From contig OZ253467.1 of assembly GCA_965261665.1 (NCBI GenBank), positions 2,777,798-2,841,797 on the forward strand: a stretch of 64,000 nucleotides of DNA, in the 5' to 3' direction. The stretch comes from Dehalococcoidia bacterium. GTDB lineage: Bacteria > Chloroflexota > Dehalococcoidia > Lucifugimonadales > GCA-2712585. The notes beneath the pieces are model-generated. The model ran no database searches, was not told the DNA's origin, and was given only the letters and a program-made list of their open reading frames with translations. Made by a program: the position numbers and the translations under genes. Below are positions 5,575-64,000 of the stretch, piece after piece. Every line of letters begins with the position of its first letter. Position 1 is the stretch's first letter.

Positions 5575-5618
5575 ATCCGCGGGAACAGCGGAGGGGGAGG
5601 GGGATGAGGTAGGGTGTC

Positions 5619-18440: not shown

Positions 18441-18481
18441 GAGTGGAAGTCGCAAAGACCGTCCGATGGAAGGAGAATGCA

Positions 18482-31911: not shown

Positions 31912-31988
31912 GGGCGGTTAGCTCAGCTGGTTAGAGCACCTGCTTTACACGCAGGGGGTCACAGGTTCGAGTCCTGTATCGCCCACCA
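31912..31988 (+). tRNA. tRNA-Val (anticodon TAC), CCA encoded
   Basis: Hand-folded cloverleaf. Acceptor GGGCGGT/ATCGCCC, D stem GCTC/GAGC, anticodon stem CCTGC/GCAGG with loop TTTACAC, T arm ACAGG-TTCGAGT-CCTGT. Confidence 0.93.
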
Positions 31989-32108: not shown

Positions 32109-35446
<3,338 letters not shown>

Positions 35447-40598: not shown

Positions 40599-41534
40599 AT
40601 GCTCAGAGGCAGATTAGGGCTGGAAACGGCGAGGGTGCCCCACGCAGACCGTCACGGCCTGTTGTGGCTAAGCCGCGGCGCCCTCGCCGTTAAGGACGGC
40701 ACCTTGCGCTTTCTCCGGAATGATGGTGCGGACAGGTCCAGTCCGTTGGAAAGCGGCGAGTACGGCATCCCCTTTCAATCCCTCTCCATGATACTGCTGG
40801 GGCCGGGATCCACCGTTAGCCACGACGCCCTCCGTCTCATGGCGCGGCACGGAACCGCCCTAGTCGCCGTTGGGGAGGACGGTGTCAGGTGTTATACCGC
40901 TCCCCCGTTGATGCCGGACTCATCCGACATAGCCCGCCGGCAAATGCGGGCATGGGGGGATCCGAAGGGCGGGCGCATAGCCATCGCCCGAAAAATGTAC
41001 GCCCTGCGTCTTGGAGAGGTGCTTCCATTCCACGACTTGAACGCTCTACGCGGCGTTGAAGGAGGACGCGCAAAAAAGATGTACCGGCACCTTGCCCAGC
41101 GATATGGAATCACCTGGCAAGGCCGACGCTACGACCGTGGTAATCCCCTTGCGGCGGATATACCCAATCAAGCCGTAAACCACGCGTCCGTGGCCGTTAC
41201 CTCAGCTGCCGTCATTGCTGTGACCTCGGTTGGCGCCATTCCCCAGCTGGGATTCATACACGAGCACAGCGGCGACGCCTTCGCCTTGGACATTGCCGAC
41301 CTGTTTCGGGATAACGTCCTACTTCCAGCTGCCTTCAAGTCCGCCAAAGCAGTAATTGACAACCCCACCCTGGACATAGAGCGGCATACAAGACGGACGA
41401 CGGGAGAGATGCTCCGGAGCGAGCGGGTTGTGTCGAAAATGATCGACCGAATAAAGGCCCTCTTTCAGGACGTCTCGCCCCTTGACGTAGAGTCGCCGAC
41501 ACCGAAAAAGGGAAGTGGGAGGGCAAAACAATGA
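40599..41534 (+). CDS. cas1: Cas1e integrase
   Basis: 311 aa from ATG 40599, 7 nt after AGGAGG. Conserved LGFIHEHSGDAFALDIADLFR region; I-E gene order. Confidence 0.95.
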   Translation: MLRGRLGLETARVPHADRHGLLWLSRGALAVKDGTLRFLRNDGADRSSPLESGEYGIPFQSLSMILLGPGSTVSHDALRLMARHGTALVAVGEDGVRCYTAPPLMPDSSDIARRQMRAWGDPKGGRIAIARKMYALRLGEVLPFHDLNALRGVEGGRAKKMYRHLAQRYGITWQGRRYDRGNPLAADIPNQAVNHASVAVTSAAVIAVTSVGAIPQLGFIHEHSGDAFALDIADLFRDNVLLPAAFKSAKAVIDNPTLDIERHTRRTTGEMLRSERVVSKMIDRIKALFQDVSPLDVESPTPKKGSGRAKQ

Positions 41535-41818
41535 CCGTGGTAGTAACAGTAAACGTAGAAGCCCGCTATCGGGGATTCCTCGCATCCGTAATGCTGGAAA
41601 TAGCGCCTGGCGTGTACACGTCCCCCCAGATGACAGACGGAATTAGAGAGAGGATTTGGGACGTTTTAACACGTTGGTACTACGAACTAGGACAAGGAGC
41701 CATAGTGATGACTTGGCGTGATCCGTCCGCTGCGGCAGAACAAAGGATTAGGACCCTTGGCGAAGCGCCCAAGGAGATTGTGGATGCCGACGGAGTCTAT
41801 CTAGTGAAGTACAACTAG
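41531..41818 (+). CDS. cas2: Cas2e
   Basis: 95 aa, MTVVVTVNVEARYRGFLASVMLEIAPGVYT. ATGA overlap with cas1. No fused DnaQ domain. Confidence 0.93.
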   Translation: MTVVVTVNVEARYRGFLASVMLEIAPGVYTSPQMTDGIRERIWDVLTRWYYELGQGAIVMTWRDPSAAAEQRIRTLGEAPKEIVDADGVYLVKYN

Positions 41819-41920
41819 ACCAATGCCGCAACACTGCCGATAAGACGTTTCGGTCCAGGTTAGAAGCAAGAGCAACGGAGTAGCAGAACACGGCTAACAA
41901 GAATTACGAAAATCGTTAGG
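41819..41920 (+). promoter_or_regulatory. CRISPR leader
   Basis: 102-bp non-coding, locally AT-richer segment between the cas2 stop and the first repeat. This is the position of the I-E leader. Confidence 0.6.
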
Positions 41921-44900
41921 GGTTCCCCCGCACCCGCGGGGATAGACCTTACTTATCCCCCAGCCCCACCAACCCGCAGCCGGTTCCCCCGCACCCGCGG
42001 GGATAGACCGTTGCTATCTGCGGGGGATTTTTGCCCGGTAAGGGTTCCCCCGCACCCGCGGGGATAGACCTTGCCCTAAAACCTGGATAGATATTGGGTT
42101 TCCGGTTCCCCCGCACCCGCGGGGATAGACCTTCTTATTGTAGTTGTAGTTGTTGTAGTTAGTTGGTTCCCCCGCACCCGCGGGGATAGACCCACTCCCA
42201 TACTGGGCATGGTCACGTGTCAAATGGTTCCCCCGCACCCGCGGGGATAGACCGTAATCTCACACTTTACTAGCCATAAGCTAGCCGGTTCCCCCGCACC
42301 CGCGGGGATAGACCCGCAGTAGGTGTCAAACCGAACTTGCCCAAAATGGTTCCCCCGCACCCGCGGGGATAGACCACATGTGGCCTAGTACTCACTCATA
42401 CCCATTGGGGTTCCCCCGCACCCGCGGGGATAGACCGTTGGAGATGATCTATCACCAGATAGACACTCAGGTTCCCCCGCACCCGCGGGGATAGACCTTG
42501 GATTTGGAAGGCAAGCTCGAGGTTGAGGACGGTTCCCCCGCACCCGCGGGGATAGACCCCATGCGCTTGTCCTCCGGGTGTTGGGTTGGCAGGTTCCCCC
42601 GCACCCGCGGGGATAGACCTCCACAATAAGTCCTATATTTTTGGTTCTTATGGGTTCCCCCGCACCCGCGGGGATAGACCGTATACATCTAGCACATTAC
42701 TTAGTGTGCAATGGGTTCCCCCGCACCCGCGGGGATAGACCTGAGATGATGGAATGCTTACGTCGTATGGGCTCGGTTCCCCCGCACCCGCGGGGATAGA
42801 CCGTGTGTGGATTACTTACCCATAGCCTAGCCTATGGTTCCCCCGCACCCGCGGGGATAGACCTTGGGCAGAAAATATGGTACGGGTTGGAGACCGGGGT
42901 TCCCCCGCACCCGCGGGGATAGACCCTGGTAGCGATCTGTTGGACTGTGAGACCATCGGGTTCCCCCGCACCCGCGGGGATAGACCCTTGGCTGGTGTCG
43001 ATGGTTCCTGGCAGCTTGTGGTTCCCCCGCACCCGCGGGGATAGACCGTTTATTTTTGACACAGAATGGGTATCTAGGTAGGTTCCCCCGCACCCGCGGG
43101 GATAGACCTGAATTGAGAATGGGCTGGATTTCCGTATACATGGTTCCCCCGCACCCGCGGGGATAGACCTGTTTTGCCATCACCCATTCGTTCTGGGTTA
43201 GAGGTTCCCCCGCACCCGCGGGGATAGACCCCCCACCACCATATGAGTCCAAGTCTTAACGGGGGTTCCCCCGCACCCGCGGGGATAGACCCAGATAGCG
43301 ACTAGTTTGGGGTTTGACTACGCTGGTTCCCCCGCACCCGCGGGGATAGACCTTCATCTGGGGTTTGAAACCCCCTTTGGCTGGAGGTTCCCCCGCACCC
43401 GCGGGGATAGACCTGCCAATCTGCCTCTTCTCTTCTGCCTCTTCCCGGTTCCCCCGCACCCGCGGGGATAGACCTTCTGTATTGCTAGGCAGTTAAGGGT
43501 TGTCAACGGTTCCCCCGCACCCGCGGGGATAGACCTGGAAATTGCTGCCGTGTCTTGCCGCTGTGCCTGGTTCCCCCGCACCCGCGGGGATAGACCTGTG
43601 CTTGTGTTTAGCCATGCGTCACCGCCTCTGGTTCCCCCGCACCCGCGGGGATAGACCTTGGGTCAAATTCGTTCCAATTTGACCCAGTCTGGTTCCCCCG
43701 CACCCGCGGGGATAGACCCCACCACGGCCGACGTGTTGGGATTGTGAAGAGGGTTCCCCCGCACCCGCGGGGATAGACCCAGCCCTAGCATGTCAAGGGT
43801 TTGTTAAAGTTGGGTTCCCCCGCACCCGCGGGGATAGACCCTCTTTGAGTGTCTATCTGGTGATAGATAATCTGGTTCCCCCGCACCCGCGGGGATAGAC
43901 CATTATTTTAGGGTTGACAACCCTTAACTGCCTAGGTTCCCCCGCACCCGCGGGGATAGACCTACTCACACATGGATGGATAGGCTAGGCTATGGGGTTC
44001 CCCCGCACCCGCGGGGATAGACCCCTTGCCGCCCTCTGCCAGAAGTGCCACAACGCGGTTCCCCCGCACCCGCGGGGATAGACCTTTCAATGCCATTTTC
44101 TATACTCTCCTTATTGTGGTTCCCCCGCACCCGCGGGGATAGACCGCCACAACATCGACCGATTTAATCCTCTTCAGCGGTTCCCCCGCACCCGCGGGGA
44201 TAGACCCAGTTTTGGCACGGAGTATACTGAACAACCCGAGGTTCCCCCGCACCCGCGGGGATAGACCCCGCACGTGGTTGCCCCGTTTTGCTGTTTTAGG
44301 GGTTCCCCCGCACCCGCGGGGATAGACCCGTATACAGCGACTCAAAAGGTTCGGTAACGACGGTTCCCCCGCACCCGCGGGGATAGACCTACCTTTATAT
44401 TCAGAAGGTAATTTGGTTAATTGGTTCCCCCGCACCCGCGGGGATAGACCTTCGACCGATTCTTCCTCTATCGAATCGCAACCGGTTCCCCCGCACCCGC
44501 GGGGATAGACCGACAGGAGTGTTTAGCGTAATACTCTTGTGAGTGGTTCCCCCGCACCCGCGGGGATAGACCTTGATTGTGTGCTGGATTTCCATATATG
44601 TGGGAGGTTCCCCCGCACCCGCGGGGATAGACCGACTAAGGGGGCATTAGGCTTACTACTCCCAAGGGTTCCCCCGCACCCGCGGGGATAGACCCAGACT
44701 TAGCCAAGGAATACGAAGGCAAAAGGAGGTTCCCCCGCACCCGCGGGGATAGACCGCCAACGGCGGGCGGCACGGCGCAGCCCGCCGCGGTTCCCCCGCA
44801 CCCGCGGGGATAGACCATCTGCGCTGGAGTTCATTGACGGGTCTGATACGGTTCCCCCGCACCCGCGGGGATAGACCCAAAAGGCCGCTTCTCCCAGGGC

Positions 44901-47900
44901 GTGTCCAGCGGGTTCCCCCGCACCCGCGGGGATAGACCTGGTTCTGGAGTCGGCCCAAACTGACTTGGCCAGGTTCCCCCGCACCCGCGGGGATAGACCG
45001 GTGGCGGCGGGCTGCGCCGTGCCGTCCGTGCCGGTTCCCCCGCACCCGCGGGGATAGACCGTCGTCGCCTGTCATGCTGGCCAATGCGCTCCAGGTTCCC
45101 CCGCACCCGCGGGGATAGACCTATATAAGTAATGTAAGTAAGTCATGTAACATTGGTTCCCCCGCACCCGCGGGGATAGACCCTGGCCATCGGGAAAATC
45201 TGGGCCCACACTGCGGGTTCCCCCGCACCCGCGGGGATAGACCCATTTACCCTGGGGATTATTGTTACGTAACATTGGTTCCCCCGCACCCGCGGGGATA
45301 GACCGTGTGGGCGCAGTGTGGACGCAGTGTGGGCCCAGGTTCCCCCGCACCCGCGGGGATAGACCGGAGATGTTTTCTGAGGAATGGGCAAAGGCGTTGG
45401 TTCCCCCGCACCCGCGGGGATAGACCCTTTGTGCTAGTGGAGTTTTGGGCCATCCTTGGGGTTCCCCCGCACCCGCGGGGATAGACCTCTGATTTCGACA
45501 TCCTCCCGCCTAAGTGGAAAGGTTCCCCCGCACCCGCGGGGATAGACCCTTGGCTGGTGTCGATGGTTCCTGGAAGCTTGTGGTTCCCCCGCACCCGCGG
45601 GGATAGACCGGCGGCCGAAAAGGCAAAAATTGATCTGGAAAAGGTTCCCCCGCACCCGCGGGGATAGACCTTAAAAGGAGAAAAAATGACAACCATTACG
45701 AATGGTTCCCCCGCACCCGCGGGGATAGACCGATGTTCACGGCACGGGAAGCGTACTACGAGGCGGTTCCCCCGCACCCGCGGGGATAGACCTTGCTGTA
45801 AGTCAGAACCCGCATTCATTAAGGTGGTTCCCCCGCACCCGCGGGGATAGACCACGATTAAACCCATAATGAGATGATGGAATGCTGGTTCCCCCGCACC
45901 CGCGGGGATAGACCGGTTATCCTTGGCGGTGCTATTGGCAGGAGTCGGGTTCCCCCGCACCCGCGGGGATAGACCGCGGTCTTTGTCTTGTACACTGTCG
46001 ACCATGCGGGTTCCCCCGCACCCGCGGGGATAGACCGTTCCATTATGGTAATGACAGAGCTTTAAGGATTGGTTCCCCCGCACCCGCGGGGATAGACCTG
46101 CGTGTGTGGGGAAAATAGGGCCGTGGTCACAGGTTCCCCCGCACCCGCGGGGATAGACCCATTGTACTAGCAAGTTGAAGACCATGTATCGCGGTTCCCC
46201 CGCACCCGCGGGGATAGACCTATCATTGGCGTGCTGAGATAGCGATGCAATGTGGTTCCCCCGCACCCGCGGGGATAGACCGTTGCTATCTGCGGGGGAT
46301 TTTTGCCCGGTAAGGGTTCCCCCGCACCCGCGGGGATAGACCATTTACTGCCATCCGCACGTCCGTTCTACCTCTGGTTCCCCCGCACCCGCGGGGATAG
46401 ACCGCTAGCCAGCCGGCCCCGCAAAGGGGTTGCAATGGTTCCCCCGCACCCGCGGGGATAGACCTCGCCCTGCCGTAACGTGCTCGGCGATGAGCTTGGT
46501 TCCCCCGCACCCGCGGGGATAGACCATGATGGACGTGGGGCTGCGCCAACTCAACGCCGGTTCCCCCGCACCCGCGGGGATAGACCTTTCCTTGGGGCCA
46601 CAAAAGACATTACCCAAAGGGTTCCCCCGCACCCGCGGGGATAGACCTACCATCCCATTTGCGCCTAAATGATGGCGGGGGGTTCCCCCGCACCCGCGGG
46701 GATAGACCTTGATGCGGTGACGTGTGGGGTGGACATTCAAGGGTTCCCCCGCACCCGCGGGGATAGACCTTTGAAAACATGACCACCTGCTCCCCGCCGA
46801 GGGGTTCCCCCGCACCCGCGGGGATAGACCCTTAACGTAGTTAATATATAAGTAATGTAAGTAGGTTCCCCCGCACCCGCGGGGATAGACCCGGGCATAG
46901 CGACTCGCAGTTTCAGATACAGTTGGTTCCCCCGCACCCGCGGGGATAGACCTGCCGTATTGAGCGTTCCCACGTTGGCATAGGCGGTTCCCCCGCACCC
47001 GCGGGGATAGACCTCCGGATGAGGGATAGTCGAACAAAGTACATAGGGTTCCCCCGCACCCGCGGGGATAGACCTGCGTTGCGCTGGGTTGATGGCAATA
47101 ACAAGAGGGTTCCCCCGCACCCGCGGGGATAGACCTTTGATTTAGGGCTTCGTCGATTGTGTACGCACGGTTCCCCCGCACCCGCGGGGATAGACCCGCA
47201 GTTTGTGTCCATTGTGCATTCTTCGTAAAGGTTCCCCCGCACCCGCGGGGATAGACCCTACTTGTATATCGAAACGCTTGGATTTCCAAAGGTTCCCCCG
47301 CACCCGCGGGGATAGACCTTATTTGCACTTTAGCGGAAAATTCCTCAGTCGGGTTCCCCCGCACCCGCGGGGATAGACCGGCAAGCGGAAATACGCCGCA
47401 AACCAAGACACCGGTTCCCCCGCACCCGCGGGGATAGACCTACAGGAAAGCCATTGCGTTTGTCAAGCGTTACGGTTCCCCCGCACCCGCGGGGATAGAC
47501 CTACCCAAAATCACAAGACATCTGCGACCTATGGGGTTCCCCCGCACCCGCGGGGATAGACCTGCCTTGTATGCTCACCACGGAGCCAGCGGATGGGTTC
47601 CCCCGCACCCGCGGGGATAGACCCAGCATGGGCGAGGCAGTACAAGAGCAACTCGAGGTTCCCCCGCACCCGCGGGGATAGACCATCGTCGCCTGTCATG
47701 CTGGCCAGTGCGCCCCAGGTTCCCCCGCACCCGCGGGGATAGACCCTTAAAGAAAGCCTTAAACCTCGTTTCCATATCGGTTCCCCCGCACCCGCGGGGA
47801 TAGACCGTCGGTTCGACTTGCTCGCTGGCCGTCTAAAGCGGTTCCCCCGCACCCGCGGGGATAGACCTGCCAACCCAACTTTACTAGCCATAGCCTAGCC

Positions 47901-50900
47901 GGGTTCCCCCGCACCCGCGGGGATAGACCCCCGCTCTTTTCTTTGCTTCATCTACTAATCGCGGTTCCCCCGCACCCGCGGGGATAGACCTCCACAGTGA
48001 TATTTCCAATGCCTTATCTGAAAGGTTCCCCCGCACCCGCGGGGATAGACCGCGGGAATATGCACTTGGTGTCCATGCCCTAGAGGTTCCCCCGCACCCG
48101 CGGGGATAGACCGACGCCGCTGGGCGGATTCTAGCTATAAAATGTGGTTCCCCCGCACCCGCGGGGATAGACCGTCACGTCTAAGGGGTCTAGGAGGCTG
48201 TGAGAAGGTTCCCCCGCACCCGCGGGGATAGACCCCCGAGTCACCAATGGGAGTCTAAACGTGTACAGGTTCCCCCGCACCCGCGGGGATAGACCATACA
48301 CTTACATATAGGAGATACTATGGATAGAGGTTCCCCCGCACCCGCGGGGATAGACCGGTACACTTTCGACTCGAGGAGCACCCATTTTCGGTTCCCCCGC
48401 ACCCGCGGGGATAGACCTTAGTGAGCCCGTATCTCCAAATGCCTTTTCTGGGTTCCCCCGCACCCGCGGGGATAGACCGAAATGAAACCCTAGACTGCCT
48501 TGTTTACGCATGGTTCCCCCGCACCCGCGGGGATAGACCTTTCAAAGGATTTCCCTTAAGGCCCTTATTCGTGGTTCCCCCGCACCCGCGGGGATAGACC
48601 TTTAGAGGATGCAGAAAAGGCATTTGGAGATACGGTTCCCCCGCACCCGCGGGGATAGACCCGCAACGCTGGCGGGCGGGTCTTGCTCAAGCAGGGTTCC
48701 CCCGCACCCGCGGGGATAGACCCCGACAGCAAGCCGAGCGGCTGGGGGTTTTTGAGGTTCCCCCGCACCCGCGGGGATAGACCTGGCTTGTGGCGTGGGC
48801 GCACGAGCACGCCGAAGGTTCCCCCGCACCCGCGGGGATAGACCTATGTATGTCATTGCTTTGGTCTCCTCTTCCTTGGTTCCCCCGCACCCGCGGGGAT
48901 AGACCCAGCGCTCTCGATTCCGCAAGGGAAGGCAAGCGGGTTCCCCCGCACCCGCGGGGATAGACCCCATAAAAAACCATAAAAAACCCCCACATTTGGG
49001 GTTCCCCCGCACCCGCGGGGATAGACCGTCCGTTCGACTTGCTCGTTGACCGTCTAAAGCGGTTCCCCCGCACCCGCGGGGATAGACCATGCACATAAAT
49101 AAGACAGAGTAAGCACGATGTGGTTCCCCCGCACCCGCGGGGATAGACCCAACAATTCATCTACCATATCTCGATTCGTAATGGTTCCCCCGCACCCGCG
49201 GGGATAGACCTAGCCACCATACGTTTCTGGGCAATGGTTGTTAGGTTCCCCCGCACCCGCGGGGATAGACCTCTCCCGAAACCGCCACACTGCCCCTTGC
49301 TTCCGGTTCCCCCGCACCCGCGGGGATAGACCCGACCTTTGTGCCATCCGCTGGGGAGTGGGGCAGGTTCCCCCGCACCCGCGGGGATAGACCGGCAATG
49401 GCTTGAACAGTTTTCCCCAAACCCATGGTTCCCCCGCACCCGCGGGGATAGACCTCTGCCACCAATGCACCGCCTTTCAGATTATGAGGTTCCCCCGCAC
49501 CCGCGGGGATAGACCTAATCCCCAGGGTAAAATGTTACGTAACAACCAGGTTCCCCCGCACCCGCGGGGATAGACCTCGCCAATGGCTTGGCGATTTCAA
49601 AATGCATCCGGTTCCCCCGCACCCGCGGGGATAGACCTCGATTCTGCGAGCAGCAGTTTTCCTTGGAATCGGTTCCCCCGCACCCGCGGGGATAGACCCA
49701 TGATGATCGCATGGCCCGCAATGTCGGCGGGGGTTCCCCCGCACCCGCGGGGATAGACCGCTCCTTGCCGCGCCCTATGTCGGGCATACTATGGTTCCCC
49801 CGCACCCGCGGGGATAGACCGCGGGCGTGGGTAGCATTCTTGATGCTAGATAGGGTTCCCCCGCACCCGCGGGGATAGACCGGCGCAGCAGATTATTACC
49901 ACTACGCCCAAACCGGTTCCCCCGCACCCGCGGGGATAGACCCGCCAAGCTACACGCACCAGACGTACTTCTACGGGTTCCCCCGCACCCGCGGGGATAG
50001 ACCTGGCTCACACCTACGCCCACGCCCGCAAATGGAGGTTCCCCCGCACCCGCGGGGATAGACCGACGTCTAGGATGCCCTTGAGGATGGTCTAAAGGGT
50101 TCCCCCGCACCCGCGGGGATAGACCCCTTTTACATCATTATGTTCAAGGATAGTAACCGGTTCCCCCGCACCCGCGGGGATAGACCTTGGCGTTTATCAG
50201 GGAGATACGCCAACTATCAGGTTCCCCCGCACCCGCGGGGATAGACCTATTGCGACTCACGGGCTGCGGGTTGGTGGGGCGGTTCCCCCGCACCCGCGGG
50301 GATAGACCTACGGCGCACGTGCACCGGGCACTGGAAGATTCGGTTCCCCCGCACCCGCGGGGATAGACCCTGCGGACATTTGCGGAAAAATTGGGGCTGA
50401 GTGGTTCCCCCGCACCCGCGGGGATAGACCCCGTTACTACCAGAATTTCCCGTTCGACCTCGCGGTTCCCCCGCACCCGCGGGGATAGACCTTTTCTTAT
50501 TAGCCTCTCTTTGACTGTACCCCCGGTTCCCCCGCACCCGCGGGGATAGACCGCATCAATGGGCGGTCAGGTGGCCGCATACGCAGGTTCCCCCGCACCC
50601 GCGGGGATAGACCTGTCTCCCAAACGTCGCTCTGCAAATCTCCCGAGGTTCCCCCGCACCCGCGGGGATAGACCGACGCTGCTCAGTGGATTCTAGCTAT
50701 AAAATACGGTTCCCCCGCACCCGCGGGGATAGACCGGTTCAAGCGGTCGATAGCAGATTGAGGCCTGCGGTTCCCCCGCACCCGCGGGGATAGACCTTCT
50801 AGCTATAAAATGCCGCTCGATTTGCGCCTGGTTCCCCCGCACCCGCGGGGATAGACCTCGATTCTAAGGGGCCTCTGCCGCCTTTTACGTGGTTCCCCCG

Positions 50901-53490
50901 CACCCGCGGGGATAGACCTCTGAGTGAGGCCATCGCCGAACTGGAAAGCGCGGTTCCCCCGCACCCGCGGGGATAGACCGGCAGAAGAGAGCCGCCGGAT
51001 TGCACAGAAGCTGGTTCCCCCGCACCCGCGGGGATAGACCGATTTGAGATGCTTTTTTGTTGCTTCAAATTTCGGTTCCCCCGCACCCGCGGGGATAGAC
51101 CTCTATGATATCCGGTATCTCGGCCCAGTGAGACGGTTCCCCCGCACCCGCGGGGATAGACCACCATCTCCGTCCTTTTTCCGAAGCGTCCATTCGGTTC
51201 CCCCGCACCCGCGGGGATAGACCCCATGCTTCCCTTGGTCGGTTTTTCCAGCTCAAGGTTCCCCCGCACCCGCGGGGATAGACCTAGTAGTGTAGCACGT
51301 AAAAGAGGCGAGAAGGCGGTTCCCCCGCACCCGCGGGGATAGACCGCTAGAAGCAATGGAAGCAAAGGCAGACACAAAAGACAACGTGGTTCCCCCGCAC
51401 CCGCGGGGATAGACCTATGAAAAAAACCGAAGCCGAAGAATTTAAACTGGTTCCCCCGCACCCGCGGGGATAGACCGGAGCATAGAATGATTTCAGATAA
51501 GGCCTTAGAGGTTCCCCCGCACCCGCGGGGATAGACCCTGCAAACGGTATGGCCCAATCCAAAAATTAAAGGTTCCCCCGCACCCGCGGGGATAGACCTC
51601 CTTCGTCATAAACCCAGAATCCCTTTCCATTGGTTCCCCCGCACCCGCGGGGATAGACCTCTGGGCGTCCACGGCACGGCACGGGCGTTACGGGTTCCCC
51701 CGCACCCGCGGGGATAGACCCACTCACTGGCTACTTCTCCTTTGCTGTTATAGGGTTCCCCCGCACCCGCGGGGATAGACCTCAAGGACTCCATGAAAGA
51801 CATTGAGCCATATAGGTTCCCCCGCACCCGCGGGGATAGACCTTATTACATCTGGCTTTAGCAAATCTATCTGCAGGTTCCCCCGCACCCGCGGGGATAG
51901 ACCTCGAAAATCTGCAGTCCGTGTTCGGCGATAAGGGGTTCCCCCGCACCCGCGGGGATAGACCCTAGACTGAGAACATTTGAAGGTTTGGTGAATGGGT
52001 TCCCCCGCACCCGCGGGGATAGACCTTTTTAATTAGGAACGCCAACGCCCTCTGAGCGGGTTCCCCCGCACCCGCGGGGATAGACCCGATGCAGTCTTGG
52101 TTTGCGGCATATTTCCTTTGGTTCCCCCGCACCCGCGGGGATAGACCCTCCATACCATAATAATCCACCAAAGTTTGTAGGGTTCCCCCGCACCCGCGGG
52201 GATAGACCGTAGTAAAAAGCCCTGAACCTATCCAAACTATCGGTTCCCCCGCACCCGCGGGGATAGACCGTTTGTAGAGTCTTTATCCCTTTAGCTATTG
52301 TCGGTTCCCCCGCACCCGCGGGGATAGACCCCCTCTCCACTGCGGGCAGGCGGCACGGCGAAGGGTTCCCCCGCACCCGCGGGGATAGACCCTTTTAAAT
52401 GAACGGTCAGCTATCCTTGACTTTGGTTCCCCCGCACCCGCGGGGATAGACCGGTGGCGGGCTTCGCCGTGCCGCCTGCCGTATAGGTTCCCCCGCACCC
52501 GCGGGGATAGACCTTTCGCAAGGTCGATTTGCCTCTTCTCTTCTGCGGGTTCCCCCGCACCCGCGGGGATAGACCTTTGGTGGTATATATGAAACAACTG
52601 CATCAAAGGGTTCCCCCGCACCCGCGGGGATAGACCGTAAATCACTGGCGCAGCCCGCCAAGAAGGAGGGGTTCCCCCGCACCCGCGGGGATAGACCGTG
52701 ACGTCTTTAATGCTTTCACCTTACCGTTATGGTTCCCCCGCACCCGCGGGGATAGACCTCAAGCATATAGATGCTTGGGCAGAAAATGTCGGGTTCCCCC
52801 GCACCCGCGGGGATAGACCGTGAGCAGTCAAAGGGGGTTTCAAACCCCAGACGGTTCCCCCGCACCCGCGGGGATAGACCTTTGCCTCTTCTCTTCTGCC
52901 TCTTCCCGCAGTAGGTTCCCCCGCACCCGCGGGGATAGACCGGTAATCGTCGTTTGGCCTCGAGAAAAAGTGGAGGTTCCCCCGCACCCGCGGGGATAGA
53001 CCGCTTACAGGGAGAGGCGCAAAGACGATAAGGGCGGTTCCCCCGCACCCGCGGGGATAGACCGTTAAGGTCTCCGTCCCTTTTTGCCACAATTGGGGTT
53101 CCCCCGCACCCGCGGGGATAGACCATAGGAGGGCCGGAGCTCTGAAGGAGAAAATTCGGTTCCCCCGCACCCGCGGGGATAGACCGGTGAGCGGTTGACA
53201 GTAACGCAAACCACACCGGGTTCCCCCGCACCCGCGGGGATAGACCGCGGTCATGGATTTCTTGCAGTCGGTAGAGGATGGTTCCCCCGCACCCGCGGGG
53301 ATAGACCCGTACATTGAAGGGCTGATGCGCAGAGTCGCTGGGTTCCCCCGCACCCGCGGGGATAGACCCACTACTCTCGGCGCAAGACGCCGCCCATCGG
53401 CGGTTCCCCCGCACCCGCGGGGATAGACCGGAGTATAAAAATGATTTCAGATAAAGGCTTAGGGTTCCCCCGCACCCGCGGGGATAGACC

Positions 53491-53734
53491 ATATGTATGT
53501 CATTCTTTTGCTCTCCCTTCCTTGGTTCCCCCGCACCCGCGGGGATAGACCTCCGCACAAACCGACCTCGCCAAGGAATATGAGGGTTCCCCCGCACCCG
53601 CGGGGATAGACCATATGTATGTCATTCTTTTGCTCTCCCTTCCTTGGTTCCCCCGCACCCGCGGGGATAGACCTCCGCACAAACCGACCTCGCCAAGGAA
53701 TATGAGGGTTCCCCCGCACCCGCGGGGATAGACC
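53491..53734 (+). repeat. tandem duplication of a 2-spacer block (2 x 122 bp) inside the array
   Basis: The spacers starting ATATGTATGTCATTC... and TCCGCACAAACCGAC... occur identically at 53491/53552 and again at 53613/53674. Confidence 0.95.
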
Positions 53735-55931
53735 TCTGCGTTGCGTGTCCATGCCCTAGATGATATAGGTTCCCCCGCACCCGCGGGGATAGACCCACTA
53801 ATCACGGCGCAAGGCGTCGCTGAGCGGTGGTTCCCCCGCACCCGCGGGGATAGACCTTTTATATCTGTTGGTTCGTGCCTGTCGTGTGTGGTTCCCCCGC
53901 ACCCGCGGGGATAGACCCCACTACGCTGCCTTTTGCTGCTGCCTTTGCTTCGGTTCCCCCGCACCCGCGGGGATAGACCTTATGCTCAGATTATTCATCC
54001 CCGAATCTTCCAGGTTCCCCCGCACCCGCGGGGATAGACCTCTTAAGCGTCAAGGGCGCAGTAGATAAATCTCGGTTCCCCCGCACCCGCGGGGATAGAC
54101 CTTATATGCAAAATGGAATAGATTACCATAAAGAGGTTCCCCCGCACCCGCGGGGATAGACCCCTGCTCCCCGCCGAGGGAATCCAGATAATCTAGGTTC
54201 CCCCGCACCCGCGGGGATAGACCTGGATGCGGTTGCTCGATTGTTTAACTTGAAAAGGTTCCCCCGCACCCGCGGGGATAGACCGCCCACTTGACGTATG
54301 GGCCGGATTCCTATATGGGTTCCCCCGCACCCGCGGGGATAGACCTTGGCCATAATTCCCTTCCACAATGGTTCTTCCGGTTCCCCCGCACCCGCGGGGA
54401 TAGACCTTTTCCTCTTCTTCAGCATTTCTTCCATCAAAAGGTTCCCCCGCACCCGCGGGGATAGACCTGGCATATTGGGGTACATTCGACAAAGATAGAA
54501 GGTTCCCCCGCACCCGCGGGGATAGACCCGACTGAGGGCGCAACTGAAGCAAGCAAAGCTAGGTTCCCCCGCACCCGCGGGGATAGACCTCGATTCTGCG
54601 AAGCATGGTTTCCCTTGAAATCGGTTCCCCCGCACCCGCGGGGATAGACCTGGCCATCCTGTATGATTCGTTACGTAACGAAAGGTTCCCCCGCACCCGC
54701 GGGGATAGACCGGCGGGATTTTCTTTTGCCCTCCATGCCGACGGGGTTCCCCCGCACCCGCGGGGATAGACCCCCATCGGAGGGCATTGGCAACGACGTT
54801 GTCGTGGTTCCCCCGCACCCGCGGGGATAGACCATGCTTTTGTTGCTTCAAGTCTCACGTCTCAAGGGTTCCCCCGCACCCGCGGGGATAGACCTCATTC
54901 TTTGGCCTCCCTTCCTTTGTGTTTCGTGGTTCCCCCGCACCCGCGGGGATAGACCTCGTGCGACTGCGAGCATCTTTATGATAGCTTTGGTTCCCCCGCA
55001 CCCGCGGGGATAGACCCTTGAGCCGAGACGATTAAACCCATAATAAAGTGGTTCCCCCGCACCCGCGGGGATAGACCTCACTGGCGCAAGCCGCTGGCGG
55101 GAAGGAGAAAGGTTCCCCCGCACCCGCGGGGATAGACCGGTTGTCCCCGACTCCCATGTATACGGAAATCCGGTTCCCCCGCACCCGCGGGGATAGACCT
55201 CCATTTTAAAGGGCCTCTCGCTTCTTTTACGTGGTTCCCCCGCACCCGCGGGGATAGACCTTTTATATCTGTTGGTTCGTGCCTGTCGTGTGTGGTTCCC
55301 CCGCACCCGCGGGGATAGACCGTAGTGTCGTAGCACGTAAAAGAAGCGAGAAGCGGTTCCCCCGCACCCGCGGGGATAGACCTACTGCCTCATTTGCGCC
55401 CCAATGTATGGCAATGGTTCCCCCGCACCCGCGGGGATAGACCTCAAGGATTTCAAGGGAAACCACCGCCCGCAGAGGTTCCCCCGCACCCGCGGGGATA
55501 GACCTACTGCCTCATTTGCGCCCCAATGTATGGCAATGGTTCCCCCGCACCCGCGGGGATAGACCGCATCTCGTCTGAGTAGGTCTCGGCGTCTTCTAGG
55601 TTCCCCCGCACCCGCGGGGATAGACCGTGGCGCCAACGAATGCGCCGTCAACAAATGCGGGTTCCCCCGCACCCGCGGGGATAGACCCTGATTTGCCTTT
55701 AGGTGGGTAGTGTGCATAGGGGTTCCCCCGCACCCGCGGGGATAGACCATGCTGGCGTAGTCAAACCCAAGACTGGTTGCTGGTTCCCCCGCACCCGCGG
55801 GGATAGACCTTTCTGGCCACTCCGCCAAAGTTAAGGTCTCCGGGTTCCCCCGCACCCGCGGGGATAGACCCGCAGTCCTTACACGCGCCAGTGATCTGCA
55901 CATGGTTCCCCCGCACCCGCGGGGATAGACC

Positions 55932-56663
55932 TTTTCCTATATCATCCCTACATCAAGTCAATCAGGTTCCCCCGCACCCGCGGGGATAGACCGCACCGAA
56001 TGACTTATCCATACGCTAGTCTATCGGTTCCCCCGCACCCGCGGGGATAGACCTGTGAACATCTTTGGGAGTATGCCTTTGAAGCTGGTTCCCCCGCACC
56101 CGCGGGGATAGACCCGGGCGATTTGGAGGGAGGTTTGTGTCCGGGGCGGTTCCCCCGCACCCGCGGGGATAGACCTAGACCTGGGGATGGACATCCTAAG
56201 CAGGGTGGGGTTCCCCCGCACCCGCGGGGATAGACCCCGATAATTCTTCGGGAACCTACAAATCGCGATGGTTCCCCCGCACCCGCGGGGATAGACCTTT
56301 TCCTATATCATCCCTACATCAAGTCAATCAGGTTCCCCCGCACCCGCGGGGATAGACCGCACCGAATGACTTATCCATACGCTAGTCTATCGGTTCCCCC
56401 GCACCCGCGGGGATAGACCTGTGAACATCTTTGGGAGTATGCCTTTGAAGCTGGTTCCCCCGCACCCGCGGGGATAGACCCGGGCGATTTGGAGGGAGGT
56501 TTGTGTCCGGGGCGGTTCCCCCGCACCCGCGGGGATAGACCTAGACCTGGGGATGGACATCCTAAGCAGGGTGGGGTTCCCCCGCACCCGCGGGGATAGA
56601 CCCCGATAATTCTTCGGGAACCTACAAATCGCGATGGTTCCCCCGCACCCGCGGGGATAGACC
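55932..56663 (+). repeat. tandem duplication of a 6-spacer block (2 x 366 bp) inside the array
   Basis: Six consecutive spacers (55932-56269) recur in the same order at 56298-56635. Confidence 0.95.
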
Positions 56664-59600
56664 GCATTTTACCGGTGGTCCAACTGCGCAAAGCGAGGTT
56701 CCCCCGCACCCGCGGGGATAGACCTACCCGGATTGAATAGACCCTACATTCACGACCGGTTCCCCCGCACCCGCGGGGATAGACCGGTTCCGGTTGCGGG
56801 ATTGACTTGGACGATAACGGTTCCCCCGCACCCGCGGGGATAGACCCCATGCGTCCTCGGACTCCTGTCATAAAGGATGGGTTCCCCCGCACCCGCGGGG
56901 ATAGACCTTCGCTATTGACCGCTTAAACCTCTGAAACTTCGGTTCCCCCGCACCCGCGGGGATAGACCTTTGAAAATCTTTGTCAAATATTTGATACATC
57001 AGGTTCCCCCGCACCCGCGGGGATAGACCTTATTACATCTGGCTTTAGCAAATCTATCTGCAGGTTCCCCCGCACCCGCGGGGATAGACCGATTCAGCGT
57101 GCCATTCGTGCCTAGATGTGCCAGGTTCCCCCGCACCCGCGGGGATAGACCGGATACACGTCTTACCTAGCGCGCTGCCCGTGAGGTTCCCCCGCACCCG
57201 CGGGGATAGACCGTATGCCGCCAACCAGGACACCGTCAATCATTTGGTTCCCCCGCACCCGCGGGGATAGACCGCTGAAACTTGTCGTTGATGACAGCCT
57301 GCCGGCGGTTCCCCCGCACCCGCGGGGATAGACCGCTGACAGTCCAGCAGATAGCTACAAGTTTAGGGGTTCCCCCGCACCCGCGGGGATAGACCTCCTC
57401 TTCAGCCAGTACTTAGAGTACACATATTGGTTCCCCCGCACCCGCGGGGATAGACCTTTTGGATTAGGCTAGCTTATGGCTAGTAAAGTGGTTCCCCCGC
57501 ACCCGCGGGGATAGACCCCTTGAACACTTGTGTCCTTTTGGCATGTGCAAGGTTCCCCCGCACCCGCGGGGATAGACCTATCACTCACTGGATAGGCTAG
57601 GCTATGGCTAGGGTTCCCCCGCACCCGCGGGGATAGACCTGGTGTAGCACGTAAAAGAGGCAAGAGGCCCCTGGTTCCCCCGCACCCGCGGGGATAGACC
57701 CCCACCACCCCCATGAATCCAAGTCTTAACGGGGGTTCCCCCGCACCCGCGGGGATAGACCTTATGTCTAGCCACGGCATAAACCCTGCTTATGGGTTCC
57801 CCCGCACCCGCGGGGATAGACCGCGTTTCGATATACAAGTAGTTGATAAAGTGACGGTTCCCCCGCACCCGCGGGGATAGACCCGCACTGACGATTGCTC
57901 GCCTAAAGCCGTCCCCGGTTCCCCCGCACCCGCGGGGATAGACCCCGATAACCACACCGATCACAGGTTATCACCACGGTTCCCCCGCACCCGCGGGGAT
58001 AGACCGCGTTAATGGGATTGGAAAGCGAAGGAGGGGAAGGTTCCCCCGCACCCGCGGGGATAGACCGGGTAGTGATAATGAGAGGGCGCGGGTGGTGCGG
58101 GTTCCCCCGCACCCGCGGGGATAGACCGATGACTCCCACGACGACTCCCACCAGGACTCCGGTTCCCCCGCACCCGCGGGGATAGACCGTGGTCTATGCG
58201 TGGTTTGACGCTCGGAATAGAGGTTCCCCCGCACCCGCGGGGATAGACCTTCGACGCTATATCCAAGTCCCGGAACAGCAGGGGTTCCCCCGCACCCGCG
58301 GGGATAGACCGGCGGTAAGCCTCCCGGAAAGCCGAAGCAGCGAGGTTCCCCCGCACCCGCGGGGATAGACCTCTATGACATCGGAGCGGATGATGCTGGC
58401 ATGGGGTTCCCCCGCACCCGCGGGGATAGACCCTCCGAGGACTCCCATCAGGATTCCCACCAGGAGGTTCCCCCGCACCCGCGGGGATAGACCCCACTAC
58501 AAGTCAGCTGGATCTTATCCTACTACCGGTTCCCCCGCACCCGCGGGGATAGACCAAACCTACCCATAGAGAGTTCTATGCTGAACAAGGTTCCCCCGCA
58601 CCCGCGGGGATAGACCTCCCGTGAGAACCTCAATCCAGTCTATTCCTTCGGTTCCCCCGCACCCGCGGGGATAGACCTAGGCACCGTTCCCGGAACCTCT
58701 CCGCCCATCGGGTTCCCCCGCACCCGCGGGGATAGACCTATTCTTCCCATATTATGATTTGCCCACACCTGGGTTCCCCCGCACCCGCGGGGATAGACCG
58801 GTTCGTTTATGATTCTCCGCCCCTTATCTTTAGGTTCCCCCGCACCCGCGGGGATAGACCCCACATCATCAGCGCCCCCCCCTACGTCACTATGGTTCCC
58901 CCGCACCCGCGGGGATAGACCTGCAGAGGTCGTTTTCAGGGATGCCGCGACCGAGGTTCCCCCGCACCCGCGGGGATAGACCTCTTTGCATTGACTTGAT
59001 TCACCAAACGTTCATGGTTCCCCCGCACCCGCGGGGATAGACCGTATTAACTGGTCTGTCTGGTGCTGTGGTCCGTGGTTCCCCCGCACCCGCGGGGATA
59101 GACCGCCGAAGACGCAAGCAGGAGACCCTGCTAAGGGGGTTCCCCCGCACCCGCGGGGATAGACCGTGAACCGCCCACCATTGGTTCGCCGCTCTAATGG
59201 TTCCCCCGCACCCGCGGGGATAGACCTCGCCATGCTTAAGGGCACATTGAAATATAAACGGTTCCCCCGCACCCGCGGGGATAGACCCCCGCTCCGTCGC
59301 CGTTAGCAGGCCGGCGCTGAGGTTCCCCCGCACCCGCGGGGATAGACCGGAGAAACACATACAGACCCCATTTCAACCCTCGGTTCCCCCGCACCCGCGG
59401 GGATAGACCCATATGGACTAGACTTCAACCACAACCGCGCCGGGTTCCCCCGCACCCGCGGGGATAGACCTTCGCCATTTATTTCACGCCACCTTTTCCA
59501 GAAGGTTCCCCCGCACCCGCGGGGATAGACCGCCTCTGCCTTACAGGTCTGCGAGGTCGATAAGGGTTCCCCCGCACCCGCGGGGATAGACCGATGGGGG

Positions 59601-62600
59601 TTGATGTTGATAGGAATATGCGTTAGGTTCCCCCGCACCCGCGGGGATAGACCCTTGGTGAAGCGAGCGTCTCGAAGGCTCAAGGGGGTTCCCCCGCACC
59701 CGCGGGGATAGACCCGATCGGACGTGAGGATATATGGACCGTTGAAAGGTTCCCCCGCACCCGCGGGGATAGACCGAACCGGTATATGGATGCGTGGTCA
59801 CAAAACAGGGTTCCCCCGCACCCGCGGGGATAGACCGTGATCCAAGTCCTCCTAATACTGGTGAAGTGTGGTTCCCCCGCACCCGCGGGGATAGACCATC
59901 GCCCTTGCGTACATCACGACTATTGATGAAGGTTCCCCCGCACCCGCGGGGATAGACCGGTAATAACTAAGGTGTTACCTGTAGTACCTGGGGTTCCCCC
60001 GCACCCGCGGGGATAGACCGCCTCCAGGGGATGTTCCGACAACAGGACCTCCGGTTCCCCCGCACCCGCGGGGATAGACCTAGTACGATGCCGGGCTACC
60101 TGGGCACGGGTACGGTTCCCCCGCACCCGCGGGGATAGACCCGCTAACATCGTCCAAGAATGCGGGCATGAAGAGGTTCCCCCGCACCCGCGGGGATAGA
60201 CCTTCACTTGCTGTCCATCGCCCGTGGCCATAATCGGTTCCCCCGCACCCGCGGGGATAGACCCAGCCCAGGAACCAGCACCACTATCAACTGATAGGTT
60301 CCCCCGCACCCGCGGGGATAGACCCGAGGGCCGTCTGGAGCTTGACGCACGGGCGGCGGTTCCCCCGCACCCGCGGGGATAGACCTTTCGCGACAGTGTT
60401 GGACGACCTGAAAATTGAGGTTCCCCCGCACCCGCGGGGATAGACCCCCTGGCCTCTTGTCTTCAAACGAAGGTAAAGAGGTTCCCCCGCACCCGCGGGG
60501 ATAGACCGAGGCTATACAATGACTACGATTGAAGCCCCGGGGTTCCCCCGCACCCGCGGGGATAGACCTCTTGATTAGTGGGTCAATCAATCCTTCGTTG
60601 TGGTTCCCCCGCACCCGCGGGGATAGACCTAGTCTACCGTCAAAGTTGGAGTTAGAGTACATGGTTCCCCCGCACCCGCGGGGATAGACCGGTTGGATGT
60701 CCTTCTCATGGGAACGAAGCGTTGGTTCCCCCGCACCCGCGGGGATAGACCCCCTTCGAAGCCCACACCAATAACCGCCGGCCAGGTTCCCCCGCACCCG
60801 CGGGGATAGACCTCACTCCCGAAACCCACAAACGCCTGAGTTATAGGTTCCCCCGCACCCGCGGGGATAGACCGTGTGTCGGCGACGTGGTGCTGATGAC
60901 ATGCTGGGTTCCCCCGCACCCGCGGGGATAGACCTATCAGAAAAGACTGCATCCGCCCAACCAGTTAGGTTCCCCCGCACCCGCGGGGATAGACCCATCA
61001 GCCGAGACTGGCCAGACCCCCCCCAAGTGGTTCCCCCGCACCCGCGGGGATAGACCCGTAGAGCACCTTTTGCAAGCGCAGCTAAACCTGGTTCCCCCGC
61101 ACCCGCGGGGATAGACCCGCCATCAATGGAAGACATGATGAAGGCATTGCGGTTCCCCCGCACCCGCGGGGATAGACCCGTCGCTCTCCTAATATCCGTC
61201 GAGGTCTCCGAGGTTCCCCCGCACCCGCGGGGATAGACCCGACGCCTTAGCTTGCCCATCCTTTATCCACGCGGTTCCCCCGCACCCGCGGGGATAGACC
61301 CCCTACGGATAGCCGCTAGGCGCACCTTCGACGGGTTCCCCCGCACCCGCGGGGATAGACCCTTTATATATTGGAGGTTCACCAATGCTTGCCAGGTTCC
61401 CCCGCACCCGCGGGGATAGACCCTCCAAGACGTACCGGCTCTTCCATATTTGTGTGGTTCCCCCGCACCCGCGGGGATAGACCCTCCAACCTCACTCCCG
61501 GAACCTGATCCAAAATGGTTCCCCCGCACCCGCGGGGATAGACCGAAGGCATTCCTCAACGCTGCCCGACAGGGCGTGGTTCCCCCGCACTCGCGGGGAT
61601 AGACCTTAGTTTCACAGCTTCCCTATCAAGTCGGGGGAGGTTCCCCCGCACCCGCGGGGATAGACCGCAGGACCACAGCAAAGCCCACCACCACGAGTCG
61701 GTTCCCCCGCACCCGCGGGGATAGACCCTGCTCTTGCTCATAACGTCGGTAGTGCGGTGGGGTTCCCCCGCACCCGCGGGGATAGACCCGTTGGTTAGCG
61801 TCAATATAGCGTTGGACATCGGGTTCCCCCGCACCCGCGGGGATAGACCGTCGTTGCCCCAGAATGCCAAGGTCGTCGTTACGGTTCCCCCGCACCCGCG
61901 GGGATAGACCTCGACCACCATAGACGGCTTCTGGGCTTACATCGGTTCCCCCGCACCCGCGGGGATAGACCCTCCTAAATGCAGACGACAGCCCCATGCG
62001 GCTGGGTTCCCCCGCACCCGCGGGGATAGACCGTCCGTGGAAGACTCCAAGGGCGAATTGGACCGGGTTCCCCCGCACCCGCGGGGATAGACCACCTGGT
62101 CTACAGACCCGACCGCATCAGCCTTGGGTTCCCCCGCACCCGCGGGGATAGACCCTGCACGGACTGCGGGAAGATTAAGAGGATAACGGTTCCCCCGCAC
62201 CCGCGGGGATAGACCTCGGTCTCTAGTATACACGCTATCCCGCCGTTTGGTTCCCCCGCACCCGCGGGGATAGACCTCTGGCAGGGTACTACGGGGACGT
62301 AGTGACGAGGGTTCCCCCGCACCCGCGGGGATAGACCTGGCACATACACCGCAGGCGAGACCCTGAGAGTGGTTCCCCCGCACCCGCGGGGATAGACCTC
62401 GCCTACGTAGTCCGCAAAGTCGGTTATTTCAGGTTCCCCCGCACCCGCGGGGATAGACCCGCTTGGCTGATCGGCATTACCCAAACCGCCAAGGTTCCCC
62501 CGCACCCGCGGGGATAGACCGCTGTTGCTGGACGATCAGTATAGCATCCTGGGGGTTCCCCCGCACCCGCGGGGATAGACCCGTAACGACTGCCGCCGGT

Positions 62601-63070
62601 GGGCTGCGTAGCGGGGTTCCCCCGCACCCGCGGGGATAGACCGGAGCAGCCAAAGCCGCGCCCCCCCCGCGCGGCTGGTTCCCCCGCACCCGCGGGGATA
62701 GACCGGCCACCTAGAGCACGTAGCGCCCATCCTATGGGGTTCCCCCGCACCCGCGGGGATAGACCCCTTACTTGGACTAGCCCTACCGCCGCTGAGACGG
62801 TTCCCCCGCACCCGCGGGGATAGACCTTTAGCATGGGCGCTCCAAACCCTTACCGCATTGGTTCCCCCGCACCCGCGGGGATAGACCCTGACGGCTATCG
62901 TACAGGCCCGATGGGATGAGGGTTCCCCCGCACCCGCGGGGATAGACCGTTGTGTTCTGTGGGTTTGGGCCTCATCAGCGCGGTTCCCCCGCACCCGCGG
63001 GGATAGACCCGGCTCCGGGTTCACTGCCGAGCTGGTGAACGGGGTTCCCCCGCACCCGCGGGGATAGACC

Positions 63071-63436
63071 CACGCATAGCGATGTTACCAGCGTACAGAG
63101 ACGGGTTCCCCCGCACCCGCGGGGATAGACCGTTAGCGGGGAAAACCCTAATCAGTCATTCACGGGTTCCCCCGCACCCGCGGGGATAGACCGGTTAACA
63201 ATTTCAAGTCTCCGAGTCATGCAATGGTTCCCCCGCACCCGCGGGGATAGACCCACGCATAGCGATGTTACCAGCGTACAGAGACGGGTTCCCCCGCACC
63301 CGCGGGGATAGACCGTTAGCGGGGAAAACCCTAATCAGTCATTCACGGGTTCCCCCGCACCCGCGGGGATAGACCGGTTAACAATTTCAAGTCTCCGAGT
63401 CATGCAATGGTTCCCCCGCACCCGCGGGGATAGACC
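63071..63436 (+). repeat. tandem duplication of a 3-spacer block (2 x 183 bp) inside the array
   Basis: Spacers at 63071, 63132 and 63193 recur identically at 63254, 63315 and 63376. Confidence 0.95.
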
Positions 63437-63770
63437 GTGGCTAGCACCCTCCATTCTCTGGCCTGTTTGGGTTCCCCCGCACCCGCGGGGATAGACCCTC
63501 ATACGCCTTGTCGGTGTCGCTGGTGGGAACGGTTCCCCCGCACCCGCGGGGATAGACCCATAAACCCTGCTTATGCCGTGACGAGACAGTAGGTTCCCCC
63601 GCACCCGCGGGGATAGACCCTCCTCCCACCATGACACCAACTCCTTTGCCCCTGGTTCCCCCGCACCCGCGGGGATAGACCGGTCCTAGAGTGGCTAGGG
63701 CCCTCTGAGCCGCTGGTTCCCCCGCACCCGCGGGGATAGACCCCGTACCTAGTCATTGCTTCCTCCTCTT

Positions 63771-63916
63771 AGAGCGTGTCTAATAAATCCCTTTGCTACC
63801 TCGAGCGCTCCATGTCACCTTGAGTGAAGCCGAAGGATCTGGAGTTGGAGGGGCGGACTTCGCTGCCTAACAGATGTTTATGCTTCGCTCCACCGGCGCC
63901 TTTTTAGACACCCTCT
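63771..63916. mobile_element. MITE-like insertion splitting a CRISPR spacer
   Basis: The gap between repeats is 180 nt instead of 33. An 8-bp direct repeat CCTCTTAG lies at 63765-63772 and 63912-63919, 147 bp apart. Imperfect inverted ends are AGAGCGTGTCTAA and TTAGACACCCTCT. Removing 147 bp restores a 33-nt spacer. Confidence 0.45.
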
Positions 63917-63922
63917 TAGGTG

Positions 63923-64000
63923 GGTTCCCCCGCACCCGCGGGGATAGACCTGCGCCAACCTTCAAGGGCAAGCGGTTGAAGAGGGTTCCCCCGCACCCGC
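63923..64000 (+). CRISPR. continuation of the array after the insertion (repeat 359, one spacer, truncated repeat 360)
   Basis: Same repeat at 63923-63950 and from 63984 to the window end, with a 33-nt spacer between them. Confidence 0.9.

Follow-up and report, generated by a model that had tools for sequence, protein, structure and literature searches.

The 64,000-nucleotide (nt) stretch of DNA analysed here (contig OZ253467.1 of assembly GCA_965261665.1; 'the window' below) carries a clustered regularly interspaced short palindromic repeat (CRISPR) array of unusual length downstream of its cas genes. Our best explanation, to which we give a probability of about 0.85, is that this is a genuine chromosomal type I-E locus of an uncultured bacterium, probably a member of the Dehalococcoidia (Chloroflexota), whose one array has expanded to 22 kb and no fewer than 360 repeats. 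All coordinates are positions in the window, and because the array reaches the window end, totals of repeats and spacers are lower bounds.

Anatomy of the array

A fuzzy search of the window with the 28-nt repeat GGTTCCCCCGCACCCGCGGGGATAGACC found 359 complete copies, every one on the + strand; they begin with the copy at 41921-41948 and end with that at 63923-63950. Copies 1-358 are consecutive and, with spacers 1-357, form the main body of the array (41921-63742, +), as the earlier note had described after following the 61-bp register unit by unit. Beyond repeat 359 and spacer 359 (63951-63983), only the first 17 nt of copy 360 are present (63984-64000, GGTTCCCCCGCACCCGC) before the window end cuts it, so that this terminal portion spans 63923-64000 (+). 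The intervals between repeats measure 33 nt in 348 cases, 34 nt in eight, 42 nt in one (51346-51387) and 180 nt in one (63743-63922); the lengths of 33, 34 and 42 nt had been counted identically before. The 42-nt spacer is a single oddity amid the 33- and 34-nt ones. The 61-nt period was recovered independently by Tandem Repeats Finder throughout the array. In total, the window holds 360 repeats and 359 spacers in one continuous run of about 22 kb.

The sole variant repeat, the only one that had been noticed earlier as well, lies at 61578-61605 (+), where a C to T change at repeat position 14 falls in the hairpin loop and leaves the predicted fold unaltered. This amounts to one substitution in 10,052 repeat bases, and with 359 copies carrying a single substitution chance is no concern. 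In the predicted fold of the repeat, a 6-bp GC stem carries a 4-nt loop and AUAGACC comes after the stem; none of 200 shuffled sequences equalled its energy of −15.4 kcal/mol. The locus thus has the repeat architecture of type I-E (28-29 nt, a stable internal hairpin and a 61-nt period), here as 28 + 33 nt. A search with the Rfam CRISPR-DR families gave no match to the array at the gathering threshold.

The array very probably continues beyond the window, because its last repeats are perfect, whereas sibling arrays (those of related loci, identified below by L numbers where necessary) often end differently: in the eight contigs with visible ends, which hold 18-54 repeats, five arrays finish in a degenerate terminal repeat. 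The claim that the array is still running at the window edge is supported.

The 180-nt interval had been described as a gap followed by two more copies. The copies and their coordinates are correct, but the gap is best read as one ordinary spacer carrying a small mobile element that resembles a miniature inverted-repeat transposable element (MITE). The interval holds the direct repeat CCTCTTAG twice at a spacing of 147 nt, and 180 − 147 leaves 33 nt, the standard spacer length; the rebuilt spacer reads CCGTACCTAGTCATTGCTTCCTCCTCTTAGGTG. On this reading spacer 358 (63743-63922, +) is split into 63743-63771 and 63919-63922. The predicted element (144 nt, 63772-63915, no strand assigned) lies between the two copies of a 3-bp TTA duplication (63769-63771 and 63916-63918). 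A 19-nt imperfect inverted repeat, 84% complementary, occupies the ends of the segment, giving the imperfect terminal inverted repeats (TIRs) GAGCGTGTCTAATAA and TTTTTAGACACCCTC. Because removal of 147 nt restores a 33-nt spacer 358, the array is continuous across the interval.

JGI metagenomes were scanned for the element ends with a pattern that fixed only 12 bases per end. Six contigs (L067-L072) share element ends of about 19 nt, CTWAGAGCGTGTCTAAAAA ... CTTTTTAGACACCCTCTWAG (CTWAG...CTWAG), with a TWA flank. These ends are conserved past the search pattern, and the interiors are unrelated. This pattern points to an element family defined by its TIRs and by a TWA target duplication, which is typical of IS5/Harbinger-type elements. 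There is no second copy of the 144-nt element in the window or in 66 loci, and no partner transposase was identified for it; the 180-nt interval has no Rfam family match and no significant fold (z = −0.7). The interval was also considered as a second leader or second array start and rejected, as it has no similarity to the leader, the window or the loci and the insertion arithmetic closes. Likewise, the ends of the insertion were not taken for an integron attC, since the AAC and GTT core triplets of the consensus are absent. The 184-repeat array of L004, from the closest named relative, is also interrupted, by a 274-nt segment (17714-17987) unrelated to the window insertion.

Spacer census, sibling arrays and assembly

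Among the 359 spacers, 344 are distinct and 15 (4%) are exact duplicates. Tandem duplicates are spacers 190-191 = 192-193 (a two-unit duplication at 53463-53706, +), 221 = 223, 230-235 = 236-241 (a perfect six-unit block at 55904-56635, +, with period 366 and 100% match) and 347-349 = 350-352 (a perfect three-unit block at 63043-63408, +, with period 183 and 100% match). Three re-occurrences are dispersed (2 = 72, 163 = 248 and 196 = 219). Tandem duplications of one, two, three and six units are what would be expected if the length came mainly from internal amplification, by unequal recombination or slippage of units, and not from new spacers; a sibling array, that of L002, even contains one spacer six times, five of them in tandem. 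The census of the window spacers nevertheless refutes amplification as the main cause, which we regard as barely credible, and leaves it a minor contribution.

Eight further pairs of spacers are near-duplicates with 1-8 mismatches, as if variants of a single target had been sampled more than once. Three of the pairs lie at offsets of 42-43 units, but overlapping pairs lack a consistent offset, and a periodic pattern was dismissed as coincidence.

The mean GC content of the spacers is 0.507, below the 0.589 of the flanking chromosome and in keeping with foreign DNA, and none of the spacers has a match in the 42 kb of chromosome beside the locus. Spacer GC climbs toward the old end of the array, from 0.48 in units 1-40 to 0.57 in units 321-357 (Spearman rho 0.16, p = 0.002), a trend that may reflect a shift in the targeted elements over time. 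The protospacer adjacent motif (PAM) was read from cases, within the window or involving sibling arrays, in which one spacer overlaps the flank of another. The base upstream of the spacer was A in 16 of 19 such overlap-derived cases and the upstream pair was AA in 10 of 18, while A is the first base of only 5% of the 33-nt spacers. This indirect evidence suggests an AAN-type 5' PAM whose last base enters the array with the spacer, and spacers chosen by PAM-aware machinery. Some 50 spacers of the window overlap ones in L002 or L004, either shifted or on the opposite strand, indicating that the sibling strains sampled the same targets independently.

The direction of growth was read from the comparison with L002, which comes from another sample (ENA ERZ26694896) and whose Cas7, Cse2 and Cas2 proteins and leader are identical to those of the window. 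Its array has at least 161 repeats. None of window spacers 1-171 is shared with it; the shared ones are spacer 172 (position 96 in L002) and the block 278-289 (positions 139-149 in L002). Sharing limited to distal spacers is the polarity expected of acquisition at the leader end, next to cas2, and in this comparison acquisition is leader-polarised; over the 20 kb of L002 that were read, however, the two arrays also differ in the spacers older than this block. The earlier note had taken the locus for a very active or very retentive adaptation module. This fits the data (96% unique spacers, PAM-consistent acquisition, repeated target capture and divergence at the leader end), and high uptake and low loss are both compatible with the array.

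The same repeat occurs in GTDB representative Dehalococcoidia long-read assemblies, in arrays of 197, 184, 133, 132 + 72 and 117 repeats. Because arrays of 117-197 repeats are built on this repeat in related genomes, long arrays are, as judged from these assemblies, a trait of this Dehalococcoidia lineage, and the window array is the largest seen there, at about twice the size of the next. The last spacer of the window has no match among the GTDB representative genomes.

Assembly is the main remaining risk to the reading of the array length. Arrays of co-existing strains could have been joined or expanded, the true locus being much shorter. The window comes from a metagenome-derived contig, identical Cas2 proteins and leaders occur in many strains, blocks of spacers are shared between strains, and perfect 366-nt and 183-nt tandem duplications are of the kind that assemblers can create. 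A related genome with arrays at contig ends and head-to-head also suggests that assemblers struggle with such loci. However, the spacer series shows no long-distance collinear repetition, its dispersed duplicates standing at unrelated offsets, and there is no leader or cas fragment inside the array. The 61-nt register is strict over 22 kb and 97% of the spacers are exactly 33 nt long, a regularity that the noisy contigs of the siblings L003 and L009 lack. Separately assembled genomes of relatives have arrays of 184-197 repeats, and tandem unit duplications recur in the separate sample of L002. We consider an assembly artefact distinctly unlikely.

The two loci of that related genome have an arrangement of their own. 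In L033 (CBDBPI010000001.1, 1048001-1055839), arrays of 132 repeats on the + strand and 72 on the − strand stand head-to-head at the contig end, and in L035 (contig_2, 1-8000), from the same assembly, a 117-repeat array opens the contig. Either the arrays truly converge, or the assembly has broken or folded back within one large array.

The cas operon and its neighbours

The cas genes were scored against NCBIfam profiles with curated cut-offs. All eight type I-E genes scored above them, in the order cas3-cse1-cse2-cas7-cas5-cas6e-cas1-cas2 on the array strand (+), with the array downstream. Their open reading frames are uninterrupted, and the coordinates agree with the gene calls in sibling contigs. 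The gene for Cas3, the HD nuclease and helicase (897 amino acids (aa); 32753-35446, +), scored 181.8 bits with cas3_core and 68 bits with cas3_HD, and alignment to PDB 4q2c shows the HD, GKT, DEVH, SAT and QRxGRxHR motifs kept. The Cascade genes begin with cse1/cas8e for the large subunit (529 aa from a TTG start; 35548-37137, +; TIGR02547 86.6 bits, cut-off 70.05), where the frame is open from 35458 and the siblings have the same 529-aa gene call, and cse2/cas11e for the small subunit (203 aa; 37134-37745, +; TIGR02548 54 bits, cut-off 28.5). Then come cas7e (395 aa; 37766-38953, +; TIGR01869 291.4 bits), cas5e (244 aa; 38956-39690, +; TIGR01868 178.3 bits) and cas6e for the CRISPR RNA (crRNA) endoribonuclease (273 aa; 39687-40508, +; TIGR01907 49.7 bits, cut-off 45.2), which in siblings occurs in 249- or 273-aa forms.

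The adaptation genes complete the operon. Cas1e, the integrase (311 aa; 40599-41534, +; TIGR03638 269.8 bits), conserves the residues matching E141, H208, D218 and D221 of Escherichia coli in alignment to E. coli Cas1 structures. Cas2e (95 aa; 41531-41818, +; TIGR01873 98.2 bits) is identical in protein sequence on 21 other metagenome contigs. The leader that follows (102 nt; 41819-41920, +) has a mean column identity of 98% across 11 loci, above that of the cas genes (86-98%). Over the cas3 region, identity to L004 (CBDCSX010000001.1) is 97%. The profile scores, the open frames and the catalytic motifs of Cas1 and Cas3 bear out the earlier impression of an intact adjacent cas3-to-cas2 operon, and on every feature that sequence can test the locus belongs to type I-E.

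Four sibling loci (L001, at 1064-7423, and L007, L009 and L010) differ in their interference genes. An unrelated segment takes the place of the 3' half of cas3, the whole of cse1 and cse2, and the 5' end of cas7. It encodes an fn3-containing Cas3 extension and a 606-632-aa protein without a family match or similarity to Cse1 or Cse2; cas5, cas6e, cas1 and cas2 are retained, as are the leader and an array, here of 26-39 repeats. Either the interference module is wrecked in these loci, or they carry an effector variant not recognised as such.

Adjoining cas3 and divergent from it is a gene for a DnaQ-like DEDDh 3'-5' exonuclease (RNase_T; 178 aa; 32109-32645, −; PF00929 54.4 bits, with epsilon-subunit-like matches). 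It holds the same position in 12 of 12 sibling contigs, and its aa identity is 73-100% even though that of Cas3 drops to 60% in places. DEDDh exonucleases encoded by genes of their own are known as CRISPR accessories (PMC10284694). The conserved linkage to cas3, together with the trimmer systems described in that work, makes it plausible that the exonuclease acts as an accessory prespacer trimmer.

Upstream of the exonuclease lies tRNA-Val(TAC) (31912-31988, +; Rfam 70.6 bits, also called by ARAGORN), and similarity to the sibling CRISPR-cas loci (L002, L011 and L004) starts at 31981, at its 3' end. The siblings have no tRNA at this boundary (L011 at about 4170, L004 at about 165) but only a short GGCCCACCA-like stretch. 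The upstream genes differ among siblings, being of the SMC/AAA type in L002, L011, L065 and L066, with a Shedu SduA_C-type gene also in L066. The exonuclease-cas-array module appears to move as a whole between genomic contexts. The flanking genes in the window are ordinary chromosomal ones (glmS, proS, polA, mazG, rsmD, coaD and one for a reductive-dehalogenase-like protein). This last protein (443 aa; 18443-19774, +) has a sub-threshold reductive-dehalogenase match (TIGR02486 109 bits, cut-off 160) and a QueG-like match, and fits a Dehalococcoidia host.

Some observations weigh against an array built by stepwise acquisition in a working locus. No protospacers were found in INPHARED (50,697 phage records; megablast and blastn) or in six exact IMG/VR scans built from spacers recurring across strains, and in PLSDB plasmids (megablast) there were only repeat-to-repeat matches in other I-E arrays. 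In the 102-nt leader there is neither a sigma-70 promoter consensus nor, with 2 mismatches to GNTCTTTAANA allowed, a boxA element. The spacer block in common with L002 (window 58861-59564, L002 18834-19476) shows 100% identity, against a difference of 2.4-7% in the cas genes; in the portion of L002 seen it is flanked on both sides by unshared spacers, and it is partly reordered or duplicated there. Because the block is identical despite the cas divergence and has unshared spacers on either side, we infer recombination between arrays, or mosaic cas genes, beyond vertical accumulation.

The first two of these points would also suit a fossil locus, that is a large inherited record that has lost adaptation or interference and whose size reflects only the absence of deletion. 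The mobile element in the array and the partly replaced interference genes of the four sibling loci would fit such decay as well. Against it, the eight cas genes are intact with their catalytic motifs, the repeats carry almost no substitutions, and the leader-proximal spacers wholly differ from those of L002 despite the identical Cas7, Cse2, Cas2 and leader, which argues for recent acquisition. A fossil is in our view very unlikely.

Expression, precedents and significance

The DNA itself shows the array anatomy, intact genes with their motifs, spacers of foreign composition, a PAM signal and a polarity relative to the sibling strain. With a genuine, growing type I-E locus as the preferred explanation, its growth can be pictured as follows. 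Cas1-Cas2 would capture fragments next to AA, and the 33-nt insert would begin with the nucleotide after AA, which is rarely A; trimming of the captured fragments may fall to the DEDDh exonuclease, whose conserved gene lies nearby. The new unit would be inserted at the leader-proximal repeat, next to cas2. Slow loss of old units would let memory accumulate, occasional recombination between repeats would produce tandem block duplications and the exchange of blocks between strains, and one small mobile element would have landed in an old spacer.

Transcription, processing, interference, the exonuclease role and any lasting function of distal spacers are inferred. Transcription would run in the + direction and either start in the leader or reach the array by read-through from cas2; in the former case the promoter may be a non-consensus one. 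Cas6e would cut after the 6-bp GC hairpin, leaving the 8-nt 5' handle AUAGACCN, and Cascade and Cas3 would use the resulting crRNAs. Within the array there is no excess of internal promoters (three promoter-like sites compared with 7.0 expected from shuffles) or of internal terminators (26 terminator-like sites compared with 19.6 ± 5 from shuffles).

How crRNAs are produced from units about 20 kb from the leader had been put forward as an open question. It is not fully open. In long bacterial arrays Rho termination is countered by boxA/Nus antitermination, and in the long arrays of Sulfolobales Cbp1-Cren7 chromatinisation has been described (PMC10883916). The 121-spacer type I-C array of Myxococcus xanthus, like the present one a long bacterial type I array that raises the question of what distal spacers are for, is active in interference only through about five leader-proximal spacers, even though its leader, unlike the window leader, carries a boxA (bioRxiv 10.64898/2026.07.09.737519). 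By analogy, strong interference here probably comes from the leader-proximal fraction only, and most of the array may be poorly expressed memory, kept through slow loss or through use in priming or recombination.

A lineage tuned for hoarding can also be imagined, with a dedicated DEDDh trimmer coupled to Cas1-Cas2, unusually low unit loss, a full array that would match or surpass the largest known (more than 500 spacers), and antitermination or processivity of a non-boxA kind that expresses units 20 kb out. We think this extended version unlikely.

The earlier note had called the array exceptional in size, and it is indeed far above the norm. Among type I arrays the median length is 26 spacers, and arrays of more than 100 occur in about 8% of CRISPR-bearing genomes (bioRxiv 10.64898/2026.07.09.737519); extremely long arrays are rare (PMC8047081). 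The description was nonetheless overstated, given both the 117-197 repeats of relatives with the same repeat and two longer arrays on record. The longest array in complete genomes has 587 spacers, in Haliangium ochraceum DSM 14365 (PMC7145573, PMC8047081), and Sulfolobus tokodaii is cited with 458 spacers in the bioRxiv text (10.64898/2026.07.09.737519). Like the window array, these are single chromosomal arrays of hundreds of spacers in free-living prokaryotes; they differ in being longer than the visible length of at least 359 spacers, and the window array is of type I-E and belongs to an uncultured member of the Chloroflexota with a genome of about 3.1 Mb. The array is thus in the extreme tail of sizes yet precedented, about 10 times the usual and below the record, and every component comes from a known family.

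The type I-E locus of E. coli K-12 has the same gene set and order, an array downstream of cas2 in the same orientation and a 61-nt period. It also shares a GC hairpin followed by AUA(A/G)ACC, an AAN-type PAM with its last base inserted, and the Cas1 active-site residues. In E. coli, however, the unit is 29 + 32 nt with a fixed G, whereas the window locus has 28 + 33 nt with a variable, non-A first base; the window locus also has the DEDDh exonuclease gene beside cas3 and lacks a boxA or sigma-70 consensus in its leader. E. coli K-12 has roughly a dozen spacers, compared with the 359 or more here. Streptococcus thermophilus has a 28-nt repeat, a 33-nt spacer and an AA PAM, as in the window array. 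The Cas2-DnaQ fusion of the S. thermophilus CRISPR4 and Megasphaera I-E systems, a 'trimmer-integrase', likewise ties a DEDDh exonuclease genetically to adaptation (PMC10284694). In the window the exonuclease is encoded by a separate, divergent gene unfused to cas2, and its linkage suggests that it may participate.

The locus reveals no new mechanism. It is a clean, high-quality natural example at the extreme of array size: where the median is about 26 spacers, this array has at least 359, and it sits in an uncultured lineage with a small genome (about 3.1 Mb). Its 344 distinct spacers form a probe set that could link unknown viruses to this host in the source habitat. Siblings with the same Cas2, near-identical leaders and arrays of 18 to 197 repeats provide a natural series, which could be used to ask how array length is controlled (uptake as against loss), how often arrays recombine and whether distal spacers are transcribed.

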